Shown here: piece by piece, positions 96-64,000 of the stretch
Numbering within the stretch: the first letter of the stretch is position 1
Layout: every line of letters begins with the position of its first letter
Source: Planctomycetaceae bacterium
Lineage (GTDB): Bacteria; Planctomycetota; Planctomycetia; Planctomycetales; Planctomycetaceae
DNA length: 64,000 nucleotides
Assembly: GCA_020426325.1 (NCBI GenBank)
Contig: JAGQQG010000018.1
Coordinates: forward strand, 1 to 64,000
Reading direction: 5' to 3'
Program-made: the position numbers and the translations under genes
Notes under the pieces: model-generated
What the model saw: only the letters and a program-made list of their open reading frames with translations
What the model was told of the DNA's origin: nothing
Database searches by the model: none

Positions 96-2560
<2,465 letters not shown>

Positions 2561-2789
2561 GCACTTACGTCGAGTTGACTGCGTCCTTAAGATTCCGCTG
2601 ACGAGCGGATTTGGGTAGACTTTATGGGCATGGCTGGGGAGGGGGTTCATGATTTCCTGCAATTTGATGGCATCTCTCATTGAATCTGCCTAGAATCTCC
2701 GCACCGCAAACGCAGGGCACGGATCGAATCCGAACGACTACGACACGGCTGGGGTCGTGGTGGGTCGACGCCCGCTCGAAGGAGAAAAG

Positions 2790-3872
2790 ATGACTCTGTT
2801 GCGGCCGGAAGGCCTCGCTTTGTCTGACGTCGTGGACGTTGCAGACGATGAAGATCTTTTTGAAATCCTCGACAACGAACGCGTGCTGGCACTGTCTCAC
2901 TTGGGCCCTGGGACAGGCTTTCGCAATGAAGCCGCGATCGTGAAGTCGACGGGAGTCAAGGAACGTCGCATCATGCGGCTGGGCATTTCATCGCTCGATG
3001 TGGCCTTGGCCATTGCGGACCGTCTCCAGTTCGAGATCGGTTTCGACTGGAACGATTGCCCTGCCATCGGCATCTGTCACTCCCATACCGAGCCGCACGC
3101 TTCGCAGGAACTGGTTGATGAGATGTTTGCGGCTTTGGACATCACCAAACCCAAGCCATTCGTGATCAACTTCGGCTGCACTGGCTATCTCAAACTCCTG
3201 AGTTTCGGTGCAGAAGCCTTCAGCCAGATCGAAGGTGATGCACCGATCCCCTTGCTCACGATTGAGACACCCCAGCAATGGCATGACGCGGCCGACCGTG
3301 CTTTCTGCGGAATCATCTCCGCGGGAGCAACCGGAAGCGTTCTCTCCCGCAGCGGCAAGCACGCCCTGAGACAATCAGCCATTCAATCCGTGTCGATTCC
3401 AGAAGAGGATCGAAACTGGGAGACGCTGTTCCACACGGAGACGGGCGACTATCCAGAGTTTGCCGGAGGTTACAGCACTCGGACGGTCATGCGGATGAAC
3501 GGCGAAGCTGTGTTCCGGAATGGTGTCGAACTGATGATCGACGCAGCCCGGAGAGCCATGTCCTGCGTTGATACAACCAACAGACGGGTCCTCGTTGTCC
3601 CGCATCAACCCAGCGGCAAGATGCTCAAGGCGCTGTTCGCAGTGCTGAAAGACGAGTTTCCTGACGCTGTTTATCTGAACAACCTGGAACGGTACGCGAA
3701 CAGCATCTCCTCAACCATCCCGACCGTGCTTGCACATCTGGACGAAGTGCTGGCCGAGCAGGGTCAGCCTCCAGCGCAACAGGGAGACATCATCGTCCTC
3801 CCCGCCGCCGGGATCTGCATGGAGAGTAAGCCAACCAACCTTGCACAGGGTTGGGCCGTTTTGGAGTGGTGA
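2790..3872 (+). CDS. 3-oxoacyl-ACP synthase III (FabH/KAS III)-like thiolase-fold protein
   Basis: ATG at 2790 preceded by RBS GAAGGAGAAAAG; FabH-like blocks (TGVKERRI, INFGCTGYL active-site Cys context, VVPHQPSGKMLKAL, NLERYANSISSTIPTVLA); ORF track start 2757 is GTG. Confidence 0.6.
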   Translation: MTLLRPEGLALSDVVDVADDEDLFEILDNERVLALSHLGPGTGFRNEAAIVKSTGVKERRIMRLGISSLDVALAIADRLQFEIGFDWNDCPAIGICHSHTEPHASQELVDEMFAALDITKPKPFVINFGCTGYLKLLSFGAEAFSQIEGDAPIPLLTIETPQQWHDAADRAFCGIISAGATGSVLSRSGKHALRQSAIQSVSIPEEDRNWETLFHTETGDYPEFAGGYSTRTVMRMNGEAVFRNGVELMIDAARRAMSCVDTTNRRVLVVPHQPSGKMLKALFAVLKDEFPDAVYLNNLERYANSISSTIPTVLAHLDEVLAEQGQPPAQQGDIIVLPAAGICMESKPTNLAQGWAVLEW

Positions 3873-8105: not shown

Positions 8106-11100
8106 TCATTCCACGGTCGACTCGACATCTTCCTTCTTCTCGGCATCTTCCAGGCGCCGCAGAAGTTTGCCGTAGTCTTTGAGACATTGCTCAATCTGCT
8201 TGCCCAGGTTGTGCAGTTCGGCGCGTTGTTCGTCTGAGCGATCCAGGAGCGGTCGCAGCCAGCCTTCCATGAGTTCAAACTGATGCTCCAACACGTTGAG
8301 AACCGTGCGTGGAATGCGATTGACGACAGTGATTCGTTTCGTCTCAGGATCGCTGCTCATCGGTTCGAGCGGCGTTCGCTGGGCGAAGACGGCCGGATCA
8401 TCAGTAGGAATCATGGGCGACGCTGGCGGCTGAGCGGAACCAGCGAGCGCGGGCAACCCGTCCGGCCACTTCATCTCGATCGGCGGCACCTCCAGCGGCG
8501 GCATGTTGATGGGGCGGTCCGCCAGATGACTAATCTTCTCAACGCCATCGGTGAGCCGATGTGACAACTCCGCAAGATGGGTATTCAACCGCTCGGCCTC
8601 TTCGAGCATCCGCTCTTCACGCGCGCTGGCACCATCCTTCGTGGTGAGTTCGACGACACCGTGAGCCAGCGTCTTGCGGATGGATTCGAGTCCGTCCGCG
8701 AAGGTCGTCAGCGTGGCGATGACCTGTCCCGTCTTGTCATCACTGCCGATGCCCCGCAGTTTCACGTTCTGCTTGTACGTTCGCTTGATGTCATCCCAAC
8801 GCTCTCGATCGCTCTGCGATTGAATGCCCATCAGCTCTTTGAACTTGAGCATGTTCGCTTCGGTACCCGAGGTGAGCGTCTGCGCATCGTTCTGATAGCT
8901 GCTGACGATGAGCGTTTGTAACTCTTCGTCGTTCATCACCGGCAGCACCTTCTCCGCGATGCGATTCATGTTACGGTACGACCCCTGCAACAGAAACGGC
9001 GGCTCGGTCCGGTAGTCATCGTGCTGAGCGGCTGATTCGATGTACGCCCGGTTGACCTTGAGAACGACATCACGCACCCTCATGAGTTTCTGCATAACAG
9101 CGACGAACTCGTTGAGTTCTTCGAGCGCATAGGAGCCTTCAAGATCGATTCCCTCACCGGTCGCCTGTTCTCCCCGCAATGCCCTTTGGGCAATCTTGAT
9201 GACCGCGTAGACGTCTTTTTGCGACCGTGCCGCGAGTTTGGCAAGGATCGGATTCGAGGTGAGCGAGTTTTCGAGGTAACTCATCTCGAACGCGTCGGTG
9301 GAGTCGCCAATGATCTCGCCGAGGTTGTAGATGTCAGCCCGGTTGGCCAGCATGTCGGGGATCTGGAACTTCTCGCCGCTCTCCGTGTACGGGTTACCCG
9401 CCATCACGACGGCTACCTTGCGACCTCGGAAGTCGTATGTCTTCGCCTTCCCCTTGTAGACCCCCTCGACCTTGCGTTGGGCATCACACAGGCTGATGAA
9501 CTTCTGTAACAACTCGGTGTTGCAATGCTGAATGTCGTCGAGATAGATCATCACGTTGTCGCCCATCTCGAAGGCGAGGTTGAGCTTCTCGATCTCCTCA
9601 CGGGCTCCCGCATTAGGGGCAGCAGCCGGGTCGAGCGAAGTCACCTCATGTCCAATGGCCGGCCCGTTGATCTTCATGAAGATGATGCCCAGCCGATTGG
9701 CGATGTACTCCATCAGCGTCGTTTTGCCATAACCGGGCGGCGAGATGAGCAGCAGCAGCCCCTGACGATCGGTCCGCTTGTCGGCGCCGGCTGTGCCGAT
9801 TTGTTTCGCGAGGTTGTCGCCGATCAGTGGCAGATAAACCTGATCGATGAGACGGTTCCGCACGAAGGATGTGAGCACGCGTGGCTGAAACTCCGTCAGC
9901 TTCATCTCCTCGCGAGCCTCGTCGACGACACGGGTCTTGAGCTCGTGATACGAACGATACGCTGGCACTGTCAGCCGCTCAAAGCGTTCCAGCCGCTCCA
10001 TGAAACGGTTGAACTGCAAGTTGTACGTACCGCTATCAATGATCGGATGAGTGCCGACGAGATTCTTCAATGTGCACGACATGTCGGTCCCGATGACGGC
10101 ATCACGGTTGATGTCACCGGAGATCAACAAGGCCGCAACCTCGTCAACATGATCTCGCGCAGGCGAGCGGGGGGTGTTAACCCCCTGTCTGTTGACCTGA
10201 TTGCCTTCGTTCAATCCCGGTTCTTCTGACGTCTGTCCGTCTTCCGCGACAGGGGACTGACGTCCTCCGCTCGCCATGGTGACATACGCGCTCACCCAGT
10301 CACGGGCCAGTTCGAAGGCTGCATCCTGATTTCGCTGCACGGCCTTCAATGATTCTGAGAATCGTTCACTGGCACTGAGAGAACTGAGATGTTGATGAAA
10401 ACCGTCGTGCAGTTGAATAGCCGTCCTGGCAATAACGAAGATGTCTCCCGCAGTGCTCAGTTCATGGAACAAGTACGTCGCCGCCTCGTCGAGCAGAGAC
10501 TCGTCCGCGTCCTCGAAGAGACCGGACGTGGCGATGAACTCGCCCAGCATCTCTCGCAGTTCGCGGGTGTACTCCAACTGCTGAGCTGTACCGGGGAACA
10601 GCGTGGCGATTTGACCGAAGCCCGAAAGCTTGGAAGCCATCAGTTTCTTGTCAGCGACCCGTCCGAAGTGATGCCAGTAGACATTCGCAATCGCCCGGGC
10701 ACGGGACGAGTACCGCAACAATCCGCAAGTCGCATCGATATCAAGCAAAGCCCGCAGGATGATCGCCGCATCGTGATCGTGGACCCCCTTGGTGTAACCC
10801 TCGGAATAGCGAGGCCCCATGAACTTCTGGACAAGTGTCAACAATGGCGAGCGGGGGGTGTCAACCCCCTGGTTCTCGCGGTCGCTGCTTGGTGACGACT
10901 CAAGTCCGTCTCGCGTCAGCGAATCTCCCCCGACAGGGGACTGACGTCCCCCGCTCGCCTTGAGCATCTGATAGGCGAGATATTCGGCCCGATACACCTC
11001 GCGGTTTTCGCTGATGACCTCCATGGACCACACGTCGCGGGTGGCGTTGAGGATCTCGGACTCGATGACTTCGAAGAAATCGGTACCGGTGAGATGCAGG

Positions 11101-13751
11101 TGCAGGCGGTCATTCCGCAGGACGGTCGTCAGGTCGAGCACTTGCGTGTTGACGCTGAAACGGTGATTTCCAAAGCGGATGACCCCTTCGCCGTCCTCGT
11201 AGAGCTCCTGCCGGTCCTTGAGTTGCCGCACGGCGTCCTCACGGATCGTCTTCAGACGTGACTGCACGTCGTCGACTTTGACCGAGTCCCCCAGTTCACC
11301 GAGTTGGGCAATGATGTCGCGGACCTTTTCGATCATCAGGTCCGAGGCGAAATACCCGTGGATGTCGTTGATGTTGTCAAACGACTCGACACGCGTCTTG
11401 ACCCCCTTGAGGATGCGGTCGGCAGCCTGGGCGAGTGCGCTCGCCCGTTTGTTCCGCTTCTCGACAAGTTGCATCCGTCGCGATTCGAAGGCGGAGGCAA
11501 TCTCCTCGCGCTTGTCAGCCAGCTGGACGACAAACTCATCAAACTCTGCAAATTTGCCTTCCAGTTCCTCAACCTGCACCAGCAGTTTGGTGAGATACTC
11601 TTCACATTTCTCCGGCGTGTCGCAAACATCGAGATAGTTGACGACCGACTGATTGAGGAGCTTGAGTTGCGAGGAGAACTCAGCTGCCCCCTCGACGGAG
11701 GCGAGCTCCTGCATCTTCCGTTTCAGGCCCGCCCGGGCCGCGTTCACCTGCGAGAAGATGGCCGAGATGTTGTCGATGATCGTGGTGCGCTGGGTCGCGT
11801 CGTCGATCTTGAGATTGGAGACAATCTCGATCAGCATCTCCAACTCTGCGGCAGATGCGGCGACCTTTTCGTCGACGGCCTTGGCATCAGCGACCTTGCT
11901 CAGATGCTCAATTCCCGCCTGTTCCTGCTGAATGTGCTGTTCATAGGGCGCGAGCGCATCATCACGCAGCAGAAACTCAACGCAACGTTTGGATAACTCC
12001 TCTGTTGCCTGTGTGACTTCCTGTTCAAGTCCCTCGACCAACTCTGCGTCGATATATCGAAGGTCGCGCAGACCAATGATGTCGCCGCGGACTCGGCGCA
12101 GTGATGCGAGAGATTCCACAAACTCGTCGATCGTCTCGAACCGTTTTCGACCGACCGAGTTCAACAGCTCGCGTGTCTGACCGGTGACCCGCTGCGTCTG
12201 CTCGCTCGTGTTCTTGCGGACGCGGACGACTTTCTCGAATTCTTCGACGGCCGATGTGGCGGCGGCCTTGATCTGCGACAGCGGCTCGCCGAGATTGGCC
12301 GCGTCCTGGTGGTTGATCCAGAAGTAGCTGTCGAGAACGTCGGTCGCTTCCTTCACGAGATCGACGTACAGCCCCGCATAGGTGTCTTCCTTCTCGATCA
12401 ACCCCAGAATGAAGTGACACTCGGCCATGCCGCGGACGATGTCGCGGTTGCCGATCTTGTAGAGGTACGAGTCCGTGCTTTGGTGGGGGACGAAGTCTTC
12501 CCCGACGTACGGTGTTTGCCAGACCTGGATCTGGTGATGTTTCTGTGGCTGACTGTGAGCCTTGAACAACAGCATCTCACCCGCGTGAAACATCGTAAAC
12601 CCGCTGCACACAACAGGCGTGTCGACTGTCTGTGCGATGAGGTTGTATCCGAGCAGTACGTACTGTCCGGACTCCGGCTGATAGAACACGTACAACGTGT
12701 CCTCACCGTTGGGGGAGGCGACGCGGCGTTCGAACTTGAGGCCCTGCACATCCGAGTCGAACGTCTTCGCCTCGCCGCTTTGCAGGTAATAGCCGTTGGA
12801 GAAGATGAGCCCGTGGTCGTCCGGCAACAGCACACACGCATGCTCGATCGAGTCGACCCGCATCGCCTGCTGGATCTTCTCGTTGTAGACGATATACCGC
12901 CACTTCGTTTCCTGGTACGGCCGGATCTTGAGCAGGATCAGGTTGCCGACGATGGCGTAGTAGATCTCGGCATCGTCGAGCGTTTGGTCCGGGTCGTCAA
13001 CTTCCTCCGCATACAGCCCGCGACCGGAGTCCGTGTTGTCCTCGATCTTGATCGTGAGATCACCGCCGACTGTTTCGACGAACACACGGTCGTCGATCGA
13101 GATGTGAGGATAGGTGCCGTGACGGTGCATGTCACGTGTGGAGCGGGTCCAGTCGAATTCGTGCTGCGATGGGAAGCGGACCTCATGATCGGAACGGTTG
13201 TCCAAATAGCGCAGCGAGTCGTCCTCGATCAGCCATTTGAAGCTCTTGATGTCGGTCGCTGCTTTGCCGACCTGAAAGACCATGTAGAGGTAGACGCCCC
13301 GCACGAAGAACTTGGCAAACGTCGCCGATTTGTAGTAGCGGTAGATGTCCTGGAAATCTTTCTGAAATTGAGGGTCGCTGATGAGGTCGAGTCCCACGGG
13401 TTGTAACCCGTGGGCTTGTGCGGATTCATCGTTTCGCGCGAACTCGTAGACAGCAAAGACGTCTGCGATGCTGCGTTCAACCTTGAGGCCAAACTGCACG
13501 TTGTAGCCAAACAGGAAGCGGTTCCCGATCGACACCATGTCGCGCGGTACGCAATTGTTCTCAGTCGTAATCCGCTCAGTCGACAGGAGCTTGAGGTCGA
13601 TCGACCCGAACACATCCTTACGTGCTGTGTTGAGCGTCCCCAGCCGCTTTCGCAGCTCGTCCCCATGCCCCTTCAACCGATTGCGCAGAATCTCATACGT
13701 CCCGCTCTCCAACTGCGGCGCGGCTTCGAGTTGTTGGGGAGTTTCTGCCAT
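8106..13751 (-). CDS. Giant (1881 aa) AAA+ ATPase-domain protein, AAA_5/MoxR-dynein-like, with long coiled-coil regions; function unknown
   Basis: Walker A LLLISPPGYGKTTLMEY, Walker B VMIYLDDIQH, sensor region VVMAGNPYTESGEKFQIPDMLANRADIY typical of AAA_5; ~500 aa N-terminal domain, central and C-terminal heptad-rich E/K/Q segments; ATG at 13751; last gene of NfeD-flotillin operon. Confidence 0.8.
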   Translation of the reverse strand: MAETPQQLEAAPQLESGTYEILRNRLKGHGDELRKRLGTLNTARKDVFGSIDLKLLSTERITTENNCVPRDMVSIGNRFLFGYNVQFGLKVERSIADVFAVYEFARNDESAQAHGLQPVGLDLISDPQFQKDFQDIYRYYKSATFAKFFVRGVYLYMVFQVGKAATDIKSFKWLIEDDSLRYLDNRSDHEVRFPSQHEFDWTRSTRDMHRHGTYPHISIDDRVFVETVGGDLTIKIEDNTDSGRGLYAEEVDDPDQTLDDAEIYYAIVGNLILLKIRPYQETKWRYIVYNEKIQQAMRVDSIEHACVLLPDDHGLIFSNGYYLQSGEAKTFDSDVQGLKFERRVASPNGEDTLYVFYQPESGQYVLLGYNLIAQTVDTPVVCSGFTMFHAGEMLLFKAHSQPQKHHQIQVWQTPYVGEDFVPHQSTDSYLYKIGNRDIVRGMAECHFILGLIEKEDTYAGLYVDLVKEATDVLDSYFWINHQDAANLGEPLSQIKAAATSAVEEFEKVVRVRKNTSEQTQRVTGQTRELLNSVGRKRFETIDEFVESLASLRRVRGDIIGLRDLRYIDAELVEGLEQEVTQATEELSKRCVEFLLRDDALAPYEQHIQQEQAGIEHLSKVADAKAVDEKVAASAAELEMLIEIVSNLKIDDATQRTTIIDNISAIFSQVNAARAGLKRKMQELASVEGAAEFSSQLKLLNQSVVNYLDVCDTPEKCEEYLTKLLVQVEELEGKFAEFDEFVVQLADKREEIASAFESRRMQLVEKRNKRASALAQAADRILKGVKTRVESFDNINDIHGYFASDLMIEKVRDIIAQLGELGDSVKVDDVQSRLKTIREDAVRQLKDRQELYEDGEGVIRFGNHRFSVNTQVLDLTTVLRNDRLHLHLTGTDFFEVIESEILNATRDVWSMEVISENREVYRAEYLAYQMLKASGGRQSPVGGDSLTRDGLESSPSSDRENQGVDTPRSPLLTLVQKFMGPRYSEGYTKGVHDHDAAIILRALLDIDATCGLLRYSSRARAIANVYWHHFGRVADKKLMASKLSGFGQIATLFPGTAQQLEYTRELREMLGEFIATSGLFEDADESLLDEAATYLFHELSTAGDIFVIARTAIQLHDGFHQHLSSLSASERFSESLKAVQRNQDAAFELARDWVSAYVTMASGGRQSPVAEDGQTSEEPGLNEGNQVNRQGVNTPRSPARDHVDEVAALLISGDINRDAVIGTDMSCTLKNLVGTHPIIDSGTYNLQFNRFMERLERFERLTVPAYRSYHELKTRVVDEAREEMKLTEFQPRVLTSFVRNRLIDQVYLPLIGDNLAKQIGTAGADKRTDRQGLLLLISPPGYGKTTLMEYIANRLGIIFMKINGPAIGHEVTSLDPAAAPNAGAREEIEKLNLAFEMGDNVMIYLDDIQHCNTELLQKFISLCDAQRKVEGVYKGKAKTYDFRGRKVAVVMAGNPYTESGEKFQIPDMLANRADIYNLGEIIGDSTDAFEMSYLENSLTSNPILAKLAARSQKDVYAVIKIAQRALRGEQATGEGIDLEGSYALEELNEFVAVMQKLMRVRDVVLKVNRAYIESAAQHDDYRTEPPFLLQGSYRNMNRIAEKVLPVMNDEELQTLIVSSYQNDAQTLTSGTEANMLKFKELMGIQSQSDRERWDDIKRTYKQNVKLRGIGSDDKTGQVIATLTTFADGLESIRKTLAHGVVELTTKDGASAREERMLEEAERLNTHLAELSHRLTDGVEKISHLADRPINMPPLEVPPIEMKWPDGLPALAGSAQPPASPMIPTDDPAVFAQRTPLEPMSSDPETKRITVVNRIPRTVLNVLEHQFELMEGWLRPLLDRSDEQRAELHNLGKQIEQCLKDYGKLLRRLEDAEKKEDVESTVE
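10172..10275. repeat. TIR-bounded palindromic element copy 1 (104 bp), inserted in-frame in the giant AAA+ gene
   Basis: Starts GGCGAGCGGGGGGTGTTAACCCCCTG, ends GACAGGGGACTGACGTCCTCCGCTCGCC; the 9-bp termini GGCGAGCGG/CCGCTCGCC are perfect inverted repeats; it is translated on the minus strand as ASGGRQSPV...QGVNTPRSP. Confidence 0.75.
10846..10959. repeat. TIR-bounded palindromic element copy 2 (114 bp), inserted in-frame in the giant AAA+ gene
   Basis: Same 26-bp 5' end (GGCGAGCGGGGGGTGTCAACCCCCTG) and 29-bp 3' end (CGACAGGGGACTGACGTCCCCCGCTCGCC) as copy 1; central part diverged; translated as ASGGRQSPV...QGVDTPRSP; flanking protein sequence is unrelated between the two copies. Confidence 0.75.
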
Positions 13752-13797: not shown

Positions 13798-14283
13798 TTA
13801 GTCAAGGTTTTTCACTCGATTCCATTCGCGTTTGAGTATTGCCTGTGCTAAGTCAACTATTCTGTTCCCTAGTGAAATCAAGTCATTTTCAGGTTGTTCG
13901 TACTTTGATTCTGGATTCGCCATTGCTGAGCGGCTTGCTCTCTCCAACAACGCTCTAAGTTGTGCATGGTCTTCTTCGGATGGATTCAGCCTGAGAAGTA
14001 TCCTCGACAGGGTAGTTGCCAAGGAACGATGGAGATCGCCTTTGTTTTCCAGGATGACAGTTGAGGGAGTTGCGTTCTCCAGTGAGAGCTCTCCAGACAA
14101 CACGGCGAGGTTACCAAGATATTCCGAAAGGTCATCTCGAAGTGCATCAATCCAATGCTGTCGAAAAGCGGAGGTCGTAGTGGCTTTGATTTGCTTGCTT
14201 GAGACGTAGAGTGGGACGAGAGCTCCCACGACGAATGCGAGCAACATACCTACTGGTTGAATAATCGCGTCGATATCTTGCAT
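13798..14283 (-). CDS. Hypothetical small membrane-anchored protein (N-terminal TM helix)
   Basis: 161 aa; N-terminal hydrophobic helix VGMLLAFVVGALVPLYV; sits between the flotillin gene and the giant ATPase gene on the same strand with 40-46 bp gaps. Confidence 0.5.
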   Translation of the reverse strand: MQDIDAIIQPVGMLLAFVVGALVPLYVSSKQIKATTTSAFRQHWIDALRDDLSEYLGNLAVLSGELSLENATPSTVILENKGDLHRSLATTLSRILLRLNPSEEDHAQLRALLERASRSAMANPESKYEQPENDLISLGNRIVDLAQAILKREWNRVKNLD

Positions 14284-14323
14284 GTAATCCTCCGTGTCTC
14301 CGCGCCTCCGTGGTGAAACAAAC

Positions 14324-16459
14324 CTACGCCTTGTCCTCAGTCGCAGCGGCTAACCCAAGCGCGGCGACTTTCTTGTCGGACAGGCCCATCGATGTGACGG
14401 TTCTCTGCAGTTTCTTCAACCCGGCGGTGATCACGTCGTCGTCCGAGTCCAAAAGCATCTTGCCGAGCAAGGCTGCGACCGACAGGTCCTTGACGTCCTC
14501 GAAGCTCAGGCCGAAGTGATCGGTGAAGTGCTTGAGGTTCGCGCGGAAATCGCCGTTGCCGTTGCCTGCGAAGAACGTCTCCTTGACGTCGGTGAGGACG
14601 TGAGAGTTGTTGACCCAGCGGTCGACGGACTTGCCGGCTTTGATCGAGTCGACGATCTTGTCGAAGAACTCGGTCTCGCCACCAACGATGTCGATACGGG
14701 CCGTTTTGAGGGCCGCTCCGACGATCTCAGACTGCTCGGCAGCGATCTTCGTCTGAGCGTCGATGGCTGCGATCTCGATGTCGCGGTCCTTGTTGAGCTT
14801 GAGTTTGAACTCTTCGTGCTCGCGACCCACGCCATCGAAGATCTTCATCGCTTCGGCCTTCTGCTCGATGCCACGGGCTTCTGCATAGAACTTCTGCTCG
14901 ATGACAGCCGCTTCGGCGAGGCCTTCCTTCTCGATCGCATCGGCCTTGGCTTTGAGACCCTCGGCTTCGGCGACAAGTTTCTTCTGCGTGACGTTGGCCT
15001 GGGCAGTTCCTTCTTTCTCAACTGCATCGGCTCGAGCGATCAACACCTGAGCATCGGCCAGTCCCTTGGCAGCGTGTTCGGCCTGAGCCGCTTCGGCCAG
15101 CATCTTCTTGGCGGCCATCTCCTTCTGAGCAGCTGCCTCCAAGGCCTCGGCTTCGATGACCCGCTGTTTGGCAGCATGTTCGGCTGCCTGTTTCTGAGCC
15201 TCGGCTGCTTTGATCTCAGCAACAAGACGAGACTCGGCTTCCTCTTCGGCCTTGGTCACGGCGACTTGTTTGGACCGATCGGCGGTCGCGAATTCTTCGG
15301 TGTCGAGAATCCGCTGTTGTTCCTCGACGACTGACCGTTCGACGGCGACGCGTTCGCGGATGACATCCTGGATGTTCCGCTTTTCGACTTCGATCGCCTT
15401 TTCCTTGTCGATCGTCGCGAGACCGACAATGCGTTCCCGCTCGGTGACTTCGAGCATGCGGTCCTTCTCGACCCGCTCGCGTTCGACGGCGTCAGTCCGC
15501 TCTTTGTTTCGCTGGGCGACAATGAACTGCCGCAACTTGTTTTCTTCAGCGACGGACAATTCCTCTTCCGTCTTGATGCGTGCGGACTCTGCCTTGAGTC
15601 GTTCTTCCTGACCCACTTTTGCGGCTTCGGCCTGTTCACGGGCTGCGATCTCAGCGATCTCCCGCTTCTGTTTCTCAACCGCCTCGACCCGCTGTTTCTC
15701 AAGTTCCAGGATCGCCTCCTGAGCCTCGACGTCCTGCTTTTTGATGGTCTTCTCTTTTTCCCGCGTGATCTCGTTGGCCTGCACGTGCTCGCGAGCAGTA
15801 AGGTCTGTGATCTTCTTGATACCCTCAGCATCGAGGATATTCATCTGCGAGAGCATCTCGATGGGAGTTTGCTCAAGTAAATCAATTGCACAGTCGTTCA
15901 GGGTATAGCCATCAAGGTCCTTGCCAATCACTTTGAGAATCTCGTCCTTGAACTTGTCTCGCTCTTCATAGAGCTCAACAAAATCGAATCGCTTACCAAC
16001 AGTCTTGAGAGCTTCAGAGAACTTCGCATCGAACAGTTCAACGAGTGCCGCTTTCTCGGAAGCGCGGGCGCATCCGAGTGATTGTGCGACCTGCAGGATA
16101 TCCTCTTTCTTGTTATTCACTCGAACGAAGAACGCAACTTCGATATCGGCCCGGACGTTGTCTTTGCAGATGAGTCCTGAGGAGCCTTGACGTTTGATCT
16201 CGATCCGTTTGACCGAGAGGTCCATCATCTCAGCGCGGTGGAAAATGGGGAGAATCCAGATACCGTCACCACTGGCTGCGTGCAACCCCTTGTAGCCGGA
16301 TCTGACGATGGCTTCTTCAGGGCCAACCTTGCGGTAGAAACGGGAGAACATGACACCCGCAGCCAAAACGAAGGCTCCAAATATCACCAAAACACCCGCA
16401 CCGACCTCGAAGATCTGGGCGAACATCACGAAGCTGGAAAGATCAATGAGCTGAGACAC
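14324..16459 (-). CDS. Flotillin-like SPFH/band-7 protein (YqiK/FloT-like)
   Basis: 711 aa; N-terminal TM, SPFH domain, then long Ala/Glu-rich coiled coil with EA repeats (AEAEALEAAAQKEMAAKK...), C-terminal flotillin tail; start abuts the stop of the upstream NfeD-like gene. Confidence 0.9.
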   Translation of the reverse strand: MSQLIDLSSFVMFAQIFEVGAGVLVIFGAFVLAAGVMFSRFYRKVGPEEAIVRSGYKGLHAASGDGIWILPIFHRAEMMDLSVKRIEIKRQGSSGLICKDNVRADIEVAFFVRVNNKKEDILQVAQSLGCARASEKAALVELFDAKFSEALKTVGKRFDFVELYEERDKFKDEILKVIGKDLDGYTLNDCAIDLLEQTPIEMLSQMNILDAEGIKKITDLTAREHVQANEITREKEKTIKKQDVEAQEAILELEKQRVEAVEKQKREIAEIAAREQAEAAKVGQEERLKAESARIKTEEELSVAEENKLRQFIVAQRNKERTDAVERERVEKDRMLEVTERERIVGLATIDKEKAIEVEKRNIQDVIRERVAVERSVVEEQQRILDTEEFATADRSKQVAVTKAEEEAESRLVAEIKAAEAQKQAAEHAAKQRVIEAEALEAAAQKEMAAKKMLAEAAQAEHAAKGLADAQVLIARADAVEKEGTAQANVTQKKLVAEAEGLKAKADAIEKEGLAEAAVIEQKFYAEARGIEQKAEAMKIFDGVGREHEEFKLKLNKDRDIEIAAIDAQTKIAAEQSEIVGAALKTARIDIVGGETEFFDKIVDSIKAGKSVDRWVNNSHVLTDVKETFFAGNGNGDFRANLKHFTDHFGLSFEDVKDLSVAALLGKMLLDSDDDVITAGLKKLQRTVTSMGLSDKKVAALGLAAATEDKA

Positions 16460-61600: not shown

Positions 61601-64000
61601 TCACCGGCTCTCCGCCATTTCTGGTGACTCCTCGCCAGCGGCCTCGGCCATCGCTGCGGCTTTGAGTTCGTCCAGCGACTTCTTGTATTCGCGGGGCATA
61701 ACCTGGACGAACTTGGCCGACTCGACATCCCAGTCTTCGATGATGGATTTGGCAATCGCAGAGCCGGTATAGATGTGATGCTTCTCGACCAGTTCCTTCA
61801 ATTCTGCGACGTAGTCCGGATCATCGACTTTGGCGAGCGGGATGAGGTCAACAAGTTCAAGATTACAGTTCACACGAAGCTGATCGAGACTGTCGGTGTA
61901 GACGTAGGCGACTCCGCCAGACATACCTGCCGCAAAGTTTCGGCCTGTCGGGCCAAGAATCACGACCCGACCACCGGTCATGTACTCGCAGCCGTGATCG
62001 CCGACCCCTTCCACGACTGCCTTGGCACCGCTGTTCCGCACGCAGAACCGCTCTGCGGCCCGACCACGGAAGTATGCTTCCCCGGATGTGGCACCATACA
62101 GGGCCACGTTGCCAATCAGGATGTTCTCACGAGGAACAAACGTGCTTGACTCGTGCGGATGGACGATCAGTTTGCCCCCCGACAGACCTTTCCCCGCGTA
62201 GTCATTGGCGTCGCCGATGACTTCGATCGTTACGCCATTAACTGCCCATGCCGCGACCGACTGTCCGGCGGAACCACGGGTGACGATGCGGATCGTGTCC
62301 TCCGGGAGGCCTTGCGGACCCCACTTCTTGCTGACTTCGTGAGACAGAGTCGTCCCGAAGGCGCGGTCGATGTTCTGGATGTCGATTTCCAGTTTGATTT
62401 TCTCCCCCTTCTCGATCGCCTCACGGGCTTGCGGGATGAGAAATGTCTGATCGAGCGTCTGATCGAGACCATGATTCTGAGCCTGCTGACAGTAAGTGCC
62501 AGCATCGGTGTAACTGCTGATCGCACGCGTCAGGACGAGCGACAGGTCGAGGTGTCGGGCCTTCCAGTGATCGATCGAGGAGTTCCACTCCAGCAGGTCA
62601 GCACGCCCGACCATTTCGTTGATCTTGCGGAAGCCGAGCTGAGCCATGATCGTGCGCAAGTCCTCTGCAACCATGAAGAGGTAGTTGATGACATGCTCCG
62701 GTTGCCCCTTGAACTTCGCGCGAAGTTCGGGATCCTGCGTGGCGACTCCCACAGGGCAGGTGTTGAGATGGCATTTCCGCATCATGATACAACCGAGCGT
62801 GATCAGAGGTGCGGTTGCTAAGCCGAACTCCTCAGCTCCGAGCAGACACGCAATCGCCACGTCACGACCGGTGCGAATCTGACCATCGGTTTCCAGTTTT
62901 ACGCGGCTTCGAAGATCGTTCTTGACGAGCGTCTGATGCGTCTCCGCAATGCCCAGTTCCCACGGGAGGCCGGCATGCTTGATGGACGTCAGCGGGGAAG
63001 CGCCGGTTCCGCCGCCATCACCCGAGATCAGGATCTTGTCTGCGTGTCCTTTGGCAACTCCGGCTGCGATCGTGCCGACTCCGACTTCCGACACAAGCTT
63101 GACGCTGATGCCTGCTGACGGATTGGCATTCTTGAGGTCGAAGATCAGCTGTGCCAGGTCTTCGATGGAGTAGATGTCGTGATGCGGCGGTGGGCTGATG
63201 AGTCCGACGCCGGGAGTCGAGTTGCGAGTCGCGGCGATGATCTTGTCGACCTTGTGACCGGGCAATTCCCCCCCCTCGCCGGGCTTCGCTCCCTGGGCGA
63301 TCTTGATCTGCAACTCATCCGCATTCGTGAGATACCACGAGGAGACGCCGAACCGACCGCTGGCGACCTGCTTGATCGCAGAGCGGCGATTGTCCGCGAA
63401 GCGTTCGTAATTCTCGCCCCCCTCTCCCGTGTTGGACTTGCCGCCGATCTGATTCATCGCGACAGCCAGCGACTCGTGAGCTTCGGCCGAGATGGAGCCG
63501 TAACTCATGGCACCGGTGCAGAACCGCTTGACGATCTTCTCCGCCGTCTCAACTTCATCGAGCGGGACCGGTGTTGTTCCCGTCTTGAACTGCATCAAGC
63601 CGCGGAGCGTACCTTGTCGGTGATCGCTCTCATTCATCAGCTTGGCAAAGCGATCATAGGCAGACTTATCGCCCGCGCGAGCTGCCTGCTGAATCTCGGC
63701 AATCGTGAACGGGTTCCAGCCGTGTTTCTCACCGCCGTGTCGCCAGTGAACAATCCCGTCATTTTGCAGGACGGGCAAACGATGGCTTTCGTGGCGAGCG
63801 GGGAAACCCTGCTCGTGACGACGGAGATGTTCCTCAGCGAGGATCTCGAAATCGATGCCTTTAATTCGACTTGCGGTGCCAGTGAAACACTTGTCGATGA
63901 TGTCACTGGAGAGACCGAGTGCCTCAAAAATCTGCGCGCCCTTATACGAGGCGAGTGTCGAGATCCCCATCTTGCCCATGACCTTGAGCATGCCTTTACG
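61601..64000 (-). CDS. gltB: Glutamate synthase large (alpha) subunit, C-terminal ~800 aa; gene continues past window end
   Basis: FMN-binding/TIM-barrel domain and C-terminal GXGXG beta-helix domain motifs of GltB; open frame runs to the window edge. Confidence 0.92.

Follow-up and report, generated by a model that had tools for sequence, protein, structure and literature searches.

The 64,000-nucleotide stretch analysed here (positions 1 to 64,000 of the forward strand of contig JAGQQG010000018.1, assembly GCA_020426325.1, Planctomycetaceae bacterium; hereafter the window) carries on its minus strand a giant gene for a 'DNA repair ATPase', inside which lie two copies, E1 and E2, of a short palindromic element. 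Each copy ends in a pair of inverted 26-nt terminal modules, and each module comprises a foot and a small stem-loop. The gene was delineated from the open reading frame (ORF) listing, its translation and orthologs with precomputed Pfam domains. The features are as follows.

8106-13751, minus strand: giant host gene, 1881-amino-acid 'DNA repair ATPase' with DUF3686 (PF12458), AAA (PF00004) and DUF7902 (PF25472) domains.
10162-10275, minus strand: element E1 (site B), 114 bp, encoding ASGGRQSPVAEDGQTSEEPGLNEGNQVNRQGVNTPRSP, host residues 1160-1197.
10162-10187, plus strand as read: E1 terminal module at the gene-strand 3' end, GGCGAGCGGGGGGTGTTAACCCCCTG, with a GGGGT/ACCCC stem and a GTTA loop; covariance-model score 45.5 bits.
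10250-10275, minus strand: E1 terminal module at the gene-strand 5' end, GGCGAGCGGAGGACGTCAGTCCCCTG, with the foot, a GGAC/GTCC stem and a GTCA loop; 0 mismatches, covariance-model score 35.2 bits.
10846-10959, minus strand: element E2 (site A), 114 bp, encoding ASGGRQSPVGGDSLTRDGLESSPSSDRENQGVDTPRSP, host residues 932-969.
10846-10871, plus strand as read: E2 terminal module at the gene-strand 3' end, GGCGAGCGGGGGGTGTCAACCCCCTG; covariance-model score 49.8 bits.
10934-10959, minus strand: E2 terminal module at the gene-strand 5' end, GGCGAGCGGGGGACGTCAGTCCCCTG; covariance-model score 46.2 bits.

The two elements start 684 bp, that is 228 codons, apart and are read in the same element frame of the host ORF. 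Their left ends (GGCGAGCGGGGGGTGTTAACCCCCTG in E1 and GGCGAGCGGGGGGTGTCAACCCCCTG in E2) are identical at 25 of 26 positions, as are their right ends (CAGGGGACTGACGTCCTCCGCTCGCC and CAGGGGACTGACGTCCCCCGCTCGCC, respectively), both carry a perfect 9-nt terminal inverted repeat, GGCGAGCGG...CCGCTCGCC, and a single degenerate 26-mer, GGCGAGCGGRGGRYGTYARYCCCCTG, fits all four termini without a mismatch. This 26-mer, allowed up to three mismatches, had no match in 100 dinucleotide-preserving shuffles of the window, and a covariance model of the terminus placed only the four E1 and E2 termini at 35-50 bits across the 64 kb, the next match reaching 21 bits. The centres of the two elements differ, with a weak likeness limited to about 30 nt beside one terminus (the 59-nt repeat that includes this terminus is 78% identical). 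Gene conversion between E1 and E2 was considered and set aside, the ungapped stretch beside that terminus matching at only 13 of 22 positions, too weak to claim. Both elements fold as long hairpins on either strand (z = -5.6 to -6.0 relative to shuffles). One of the six frames is open in E1, and it is the one the gene uses; two are open in E2, and the gene uses one of them. No Rfam family was matched in the element region (best E values of 0.4-0.7, far under the gathering thresholds).

A first-pass annotation, made from the letters of this DNA, had described near-identical ends with perfect 9-bp inverted repeats, differing centres, a palindromic fold and a shared frame within the 1881-amino-acid ORF, and each of these points is borne out by the comparisons above and by the translation, which shows both peptides in the same element frame. 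Its coordinates for E2 also stand, whereas the start of E1, placed at 10172, lies 10 nt further out, at 10162; likewise, the in-frame segments it put at 35-38 residues measure 38 residues in each element. The 21-bit match (GGCGAGCGGGGAAACCCTGCTCG, 63793-63815, plus strand; E of about 0.008) consists of a foot and a very short hairpin in apparent coding sequence, and may be a decayed solo terminus or a chance match. Other occurrences of the GGCGAGCGG 9-mer in the window (20776, 40579, 61832 and 63793) were discarded as lying in ordinary coding context, only that at 63793 scoring, and weakly.

Within the host protein, the two linkers that hold E1 and E2 are those of greatest length variation among 60 aligned orthologs. 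An AlphaFold2 model of host residues 860-1330 (mean predicted local distance difference test score, pLDDT, of 82) renders both segments (E2, fragment residues 73-110; E1, 301-338) as coil with pLDDT below 50-65, and below 50 for E2, flanked by helices with pLDDT above 90. Judged from the stop-free frame, both elements would be transcribed and translated with the host gene, and the model indicates that each adds a 38-residue hydrophilic loop, predicted to be disordered, within a helical region of the ATPase.

The closest relatives of the host protein, all from Planctomycetaceae, are P0005 (99% identity, partial), P0001 (90%), and P0002 and P0003 (83%). Most orthologs lack both segments, and the peptide signature occurs in six of the best 120: P0001, P0002, P0003, P0005, P0010 and, as a chance match at an unrelated position, P0058. 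At site A, the full element is present only in the window and P0005 and is absent from P0001, about 90% identical; P0001 and P0003 instead have an unrelated 18-residue linker there, and in the DNA alignment E2 stands in place of about 51 nt of this type of linker. At site B, an element with identical GGCGAGCGG...CCGCTCGCC boundaries is found in P0001, P0002 and P0003, with lengths of 102, 96 and 114 bp, respectively. In the more distant P0010 (72% identity), site A is occupied by an element of 69 bp and site B by a solo terminus. E1 is the older copy, sharing its boundaries with relatives down to about 83-84% amino-acid identity, and E2 is a recent copy, specific to the source species, that replaced ancestral linker. 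The first-pass interpretation of the two segments as insertions, as opposed to an ancestral domain, is thereby upheld in its lineage specificity and amended for E2, which was a replacement and not a simple addition; relatives that do have a counterpart at these two linkers share the DNA element itself instead of a conserved protein domain, and the flanking protein sequence is indeed unrelated between the two copies. A strain-level change in the hairpin of the E1 terminus at 10162-10187 gives RQGGITPRSP in P0005 and RQGVNTPRSP in the window.

The termini are far from unique to these two sites, a point that the first-pass annotation had singled out for checking. A scan covering a single genome from each species, and requiring an exact match to the degenerate 26-mer, located the module in at least 119 genomic stretches, each from a record labelled Planctomycetota; it also occurs in 16 stretches of IMG/VR viral contigs. 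Carriers include Gemmataceae, Fimbriiglobus, Zavarzinella, Isosphaeraceae, Pirellulales, Planctomycetaceae and Fuerstiella, with the isolates SH248, Bythopirellula polymerisocia Pla144 and Alienimonas chondri LzC2 among them. The matches listed contain 211 termini at up to three mismatches, and adjacent pairs among them are convergent in 64 cases versus 17 in other orientations, with 61 forming elements of 62-132 bp. Beyond such pairs there are solo termini and a few tandem arrays, including a four-copy array in L062. Several metagenome-assembled genomes (MAGs) provide 5-8 separate stretches each among the matches listed; the window has two elements in 64 kb. Copies within one genome or in related genomes share their centres and thereby form subfamilies (for example, 85-bp copies encoding ...SPLIRH..SD.M.NQGADAPRSP), and between subfamilies the centres are unrelated. 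Fourteen of the carrier loci, with a G+C content of 52-59%, come from MAGs labelled 'Candidatus Kuenenia' (L004, L012, L016, L023, L027, L028, L038, L055, L073, L074, L083, L086, L112 and L114); because K. stuttgartiensis has a G+C content of about 41%, well below this range, the label is doubtful and was not relied on. A peptide-profile search of a 5.8-billion-protein collection returned only 15 ORFs (P0121-P0135) of 43-73 amino acids on short contigs and no large hosts, and these are probably spurious gene calls over intergenic elements.

Across these copies, the module consists of an unpaired foot, GGCGAG, a stem of up to 8 bp with a conserved G.T pair, and a GTNA tetraloop, such that an end may fold by itself or the entire element may form a single long hairpin. 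The logo of the terminus shows an invariant GGCGAGCGG, the stem, the GTNA loop (GTCA, GTTA, GTAA and GTGA are all observed) and CCCCTG, followed by one or two T-rich positions. Among the matches listed, 181 of 267 exact 9-nt feet are followed by a perfect 5-bp stem, in at least nine variants (GGGGC, GGGAC, GGGAT, GGGGT, CGGGC, TGGGT, GGGCC, GAGGC and CCCGC), and imperfect stems are mostly of the G.T type. Stems other than the majority one pair in 72 of 154 cases where 11 would be expected, and no more than 22 paired in any of 1000 shuffles; the stems thus covary, and it is the hairpin, not just its sequence, that is maintained. The centre is free in both length and sequence, with no significant similarity between any pair in global alignments. 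Direct-repeat counts in the flanks of 77 elements equal the permutation null for k = 1-6, and no target-site duplication was detected in these. Nor do the elements appear designed for open reading frames, a possibility that was ruled out by their average of 2.4 open frames of six versus 3.4 in shuffles; the open, in-frame copies found in genes are therefore survivors of selection.

Copies in genes are common. Among the matches listed, ORFs of 300 amino acids or more contain 23 of the 61 paired elements; most of these ORFs have the codon-position G+C pattern of real genes, and at least 15 unrelated host genes were confirmed by Pfam, in keeping with the first-pass comparison to repeats that enter ORFs without breaking them. 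The confirmed hosts include two tandem Ser/Thr kinases, whose kinase domain is split by the element, a 2-oxoacid dehydrogenase E2, which has the element in an inter-domain linker, a squalene-hopene cyclase, a PSCyt/PSD1 protein, DUF7133/FG-GAP proteins, a DUF7948 protein, an aldehyde:ferredoxin oxidoreductase, UvrA, two polyketide synthase (PKS)/PfaA-type synthases, a GH94 glucan synthase and PurL. The frame decides the peptide, which reads either ASGGRQ(S/P)P...QG(A/V)(D/N)(A/T)PRSP or (R/W)RAGGVSPL...RGLTPPARQ. Other copies are intergenic, and in L013, from the genome that encodes P0003, a copy of the window-type terminus begins 3 nt past the stop codon of a long ORF. The tandem kinases (L010, 1766-4726 and 4730-7288, plus strand) each carry a 66-bp element at the same place in the kinase domain, with centres reading DNSPNQ and VDSPNP, and the insertion there is probably older than the duplication of the kinase gene. 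A PSCyt1/PSCyt2/PSD1 gene (L030, 1607-4570, minus strand) has gathered several modules, as has the ATPase gene of the window, with five GGCGAGCGG feet at 2264, 2322, 3386, 3800 and 4515.

The orthologous elements at site B offer a direct comparison of termini and interiors. Relative to the window, the termini are identical at 48 of 52 positions in P0001, 43 of 52 in P0002 and 37 of 52 in P0003 (71-92%), whereas the interiors (22 nt inside each terminus) match at 15-17 of 44. At four-fold degenerate third positions of the same gene, identity to the window is 56%, 51% and 53% for P0001, P0002 and P0003, respectively. With the ends above and the interiors below this reference, the interiors have drifted to saturation, while at the nucleotide level the termini have been held or re-homogenised. 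Both site-B hairpins of P0003 have a G-C to A-T change that leaves the pairing intact. Purifying selection on the structure, repeated enzymatic recognition and repair, and conversion from other copies are all candidate causes of this conservation.

The viral contigs bring a further setting. The 36.9-kb contig IMGVR_UViG_3300026516_000172 (L125, L131 and L132) has genes for a Mu-type transposase and a Mu portal as well as for a terminase and a tail protein, and contains about 20 termini in the roughly 30 kb examined, far denser than bacterial loci; the related contigs L127 and L137 share its termini at matching positions. On three other contigs, elements (L130, 2502-2593; L135, 7823-7885; L136, 1302-1331) lie directly downstream of, or overlap, the end of the prohead serine protease gene (Peptidase_S78), suggesting a conserved position in the head-gene module. 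Because viral contigs carry the same modules, phages are a plausible vehicle for the spread of the elements across the phylum.

Taken together, our results make it very probable that E1 and E2 are members of a family of small, non-autonomous palindromic repeats distributed across Planctomycetota and tolerated in frame. Under this reading, the elements would spread in trans without target duplication, probably in the form of single-stranded hairpins whose foot and stem-loop are recognised, in a manner that by analogy may resemble recognition of the ends of repetitive extragenic palindromic (REP) sequences, of their hairpin-forming doublets (REPINs) and of IS200/IS605 elements. Selection would then keep in-frame, stop-free copies in tolerant loops, where the termini would stay constrained or be repeatedly re-homogenised while the interiors drift freely.

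Several observations weigh against this interpretation. Terminus-to-terminus lengths in confirmed genes include 85, 67, 88, 73, 94, 76, 110 and 86 bp, and since these are not all multiples of three and E2 replaced sequence at site A, the elements did not arrive by clean cut-and-paste of the unit as delimited here. A regular-expression search for HuH/Y1 motifs in the window and loci L001-L119 (about 0.86 Mb) found none, although a single-copy gene would rarely be sampled in this way, and all-against-all clustering of 4971 ORFs near elements revealed no linked gene family, returning only families abundant in planctomycetes (kinases, DUF1501 proteins, histidine kinases, extracytoplasmic function sigma factors, PQQ propellers and GFO/IDH/MocA oxidoreductases). 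Among the loci examined, the sole inverted (+...-) pair of feet wide enough to contain a gene is that of L014, whose integrase was rejected as the recombinase of the elements, being a tyrosine integrase of a tRNA island with an upstream 'terminus' that is a chance foot with one mismatch. The copy number and activity of the family in the source lineage may also be low, because the window has only two copies, both in one gene, and no further copies were found in about 65 kb of flanks in the relatives. Exact-match scans of Joint Genome Institute (JGI) metagenome contigs returned no hit for the E2 interior or for the window-specific extension of the terminus. Finally, the exactness with which the termini are conserved in several orders agrees with a host function no less well than with pure selfishness. 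The L014 locus itself is a genomic-island junction: its 602-amino-acid tyrosine integrase (1631-3439, plus strand) lies by a tRNA gene (3395-3470, minus strand), with a solo module about 150 bp beyond.

A host function is the main alternative and partly overlaps with spread in trans, the two differing in why the ends are conserved. Here the module would be a structured motif used as RNA or DNA by a planctomycete or phage factor, for instance as a terminator or attenuator, an mRNA-stabilising hairpin or a protein-binding site, and the genic copies would be by-products or regulators of mRNA. The exactly conserved foot and the covariation of the stem across several orders are in line with it, as is the finding that, at an orthologous genic site, the termini are clearly better conserved than four-fold degenerate positions; the conserved G.T pair and G.T-type imperfect stems fit an RNA or one-strand structure, the consensus after the stem (TGATTT/TGTTTC) is weakly terminator-like, and copies stand right after a stop codon in L013 and downstream of the prohead-protease gene in three phage contigs. 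Yet a terminator or processing site would harm long essential ORFs such as those of UvrA, PurL and PKS, the genic copies of the window have no T-rich tail, no Rfam family matches, and subfamilies with shared centres, together with presence or absence between close relatives, are what copying elements produce. We regard this alternative as somewhat unlikely.

[quoted passage not shown] This is improbable given that target-site duplications do not rise above the permutation null, that the freely varying centre is not that of a conserved deletion derivative, that solo termini and tandem arrays occur as in REPs and bacterial interspersed mosaic elements, that each terminus has its own covarying hairpin, and that about 1 Mb of sequence contained no full-length, transposase-bearing unit bounded by these termini. 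The first-pass annotation had proposed a MITE-like element behaving as Rickettsia palindromic elements (RPEs) do; the RPE-like in-frame behaviour holds, whereas a MITE in the DDE sense is not supported and the element comes nearer in anatomy to a REP doublet or REPIN, because neither a target-site duplication nor, in the sequence sampled, a related transposase was found. At the level of the protein, ASGGRQSP...PRSP could be a duplicated module or a linear motif, such as Ser-Pro phosphosites for the many kinases of planctomycetes: both window copies share a frame, the peptide ends hold RQSP and PRSP, and the ASGGRQ frame is the commonest among genic copies. Such a repeat is highly improbable, and the earlier argument against an ordinary protein-domain duplication gains from the new data, in that conservation is at the nucleotide level with third codon positions included, the same DNA is found in other frames (RRAGGVSPL...RGLTPPARQ), between genes and on both strands, stem changes are compensatory at the DNA level, the flanking protein is unrelated, and most orthologs are without the segments. 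Chance similarity or an assembly artefact has a negligible likelihood in view of the empty shuffles and of the same elements in independently assembled relatives (P0005, L120-L123) and isolate genomes.

Among known systems, the RPEs (RPE-1 to RPE-8, reportedly the subject of work by Ogata et al. in 2000) are closest in behaviour. Both they and the planctomycete element are palindromic repeats of about 100-150 bp found in frame in many unrelated, often housekeeping, genes, where they add 30-50 hydrophilic residues at tolerant positions, sometimes with more than one copy per gene; the palindrome at many loci, the in-frame copies in unrelated genes and the lineage-specific loop positions were all observed here. 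However, RPE families belong to one genus, Rickettsia, and are conserved over their full length, whereas the planctomycete element has its own terminal motif, spans several orders and is conserved only in its 26-nt modules; because its host is Planctomycetota, membership in the RPEs is not claimed. Correia and enterobacterial repetitive intergenic consensus (ERIC) sequences are likewise small, hairpin-forming repeats bounded by terminal inverted repeats, genus- or species-specific and conserved from end to end. Correia elements create a TA duplication, whereas the planctomycete elements show none. The MITEs of Coxiella burnetii are bacterial repeats that enter ORFs and resemble the planctomycete element as small hairpin repeats with inverted termini, some in coding sequence, while differing in being genus- or species-specific and conserved over their full length (PMC5896051).

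In anatomy, the nearest relatives are REPs and REPINs, which share with the planctomycete element a short imperfect palindrome, an unpaired 5' tag and G.T pairs in the stems (PMC3733652, PMC3116915), as well as inverted doublets whose spacer lies within a larger hairpin, singletons, clusters and the lack of target duplication. The 26-nt unit of foot, covarying stem and loop, in inverted doublets, solo termini and clusters, corresponds to the REP arrangement; the tag does not, the foot GGCGAG(CGG), invariant in the logo, being neither GTAG nor CGTC. Moreover, REPs are mostly extragenic, whereas about one-third of the planctomycete paired elements among the matches listed lie in long ORFs; REPs are usually specific to a species or genus, whereas the planctomycete module is conserved phylum-wide; and REPs have REP-associated tyrosine transposases (RAYTs), whereas none was found near the planctomycete elements. 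Di Nocera et al., who also discuss RPEs, describe intragenic REP dimers that add 20-30 residues, often in repair genes such as uvrA, in R. conorii and in Opitutus terrae, another bacterium of the Planctomycetes-Verrucomicrobia-Chlamydiae (PVC) group (PMC3733652). The REPs listed there for planctomycetes belong to other families, and the GTAG-20/21 REPs of R. baltica encode peptides different from those of the planctomycete element (PMC3733652). Class 3 TnpA(Y1) HuH proteins, enriched in Planctomycetes and Acidobacteria, have atypical flanking hairpins that can reach high copy number (PMC6006769), and because they are planctomycete-associated single-strand transposases with such hairpins they are a candidate partner enzyme, as a lead only. 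Their hairpins have a CnGA foot, and none in the supplement of that study contains GGCGAGCGG (PMC6006769); no such gene was seen near the elements. Among the papers searched, none had the motif or the peptides, the only matches being Egr-1 oligonucleotides. No published description of the family was found.

The genomic surroundings of the host gene are conserved. Upstream of the giant ATPase, in the window (13798-16459, minus strand) and likewise in L120, L122, L123 and L140, are genes for proteins of about 219 and 711 amino acids without Pfam hits, followed by a small gene encoding PDDEXK_3 (P0001 and P0002) or DUF433 (P0010). This neighbourhood looks like an operon.

More speculatively, and in our judgement rather unlikely to hold in full, the 26-nt foot-plus-hairpin could be the recognition site of a conserved trans-acting enzyme, inherited within Planctomycetota or borne by phages, in a partnership of the REPIN-RAYT kind as old as the phylum. 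The enzyme may be a domesticated single-strand nuclease of the HuH/Y1 type, or its place may be taken by an RNA-binding factor. If so, Mu-like and other phages would ferry the elements, new disordered Ser-Pro loops would repeatedly be written into housekeeping proteins, and the termini at old genic sites would be actively maintained while the interiors turn over. Independently of this reading, the features likely to be unexpected to a specialist are the conservation of the module across the phylum and the maintenance of termini at old genic sites.

Our findings place RPE-like in-frame repeats, best known from Rickettsia, in a free-living phylum of large genomes, and do so phylum-wide and with a structured, sharply delimited terminal module. 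The module is a simple diagnostic for the DNA of Planctomycetota and their phages, and it explains odd recurrent peptides (ASGGRQPP..., ...GADAPRSP, RAGGVSPL... and ...GLTPPARQ) as well as tiny spurious annotated ORFs. The elements further mark permissive loop sites in many enzymes. With cultured carriers at hand, they provide a tractable system for studying which enzyme moves REP-like hairpins outside Proteobacteria and whether such elements regularly supply new protein linkers.

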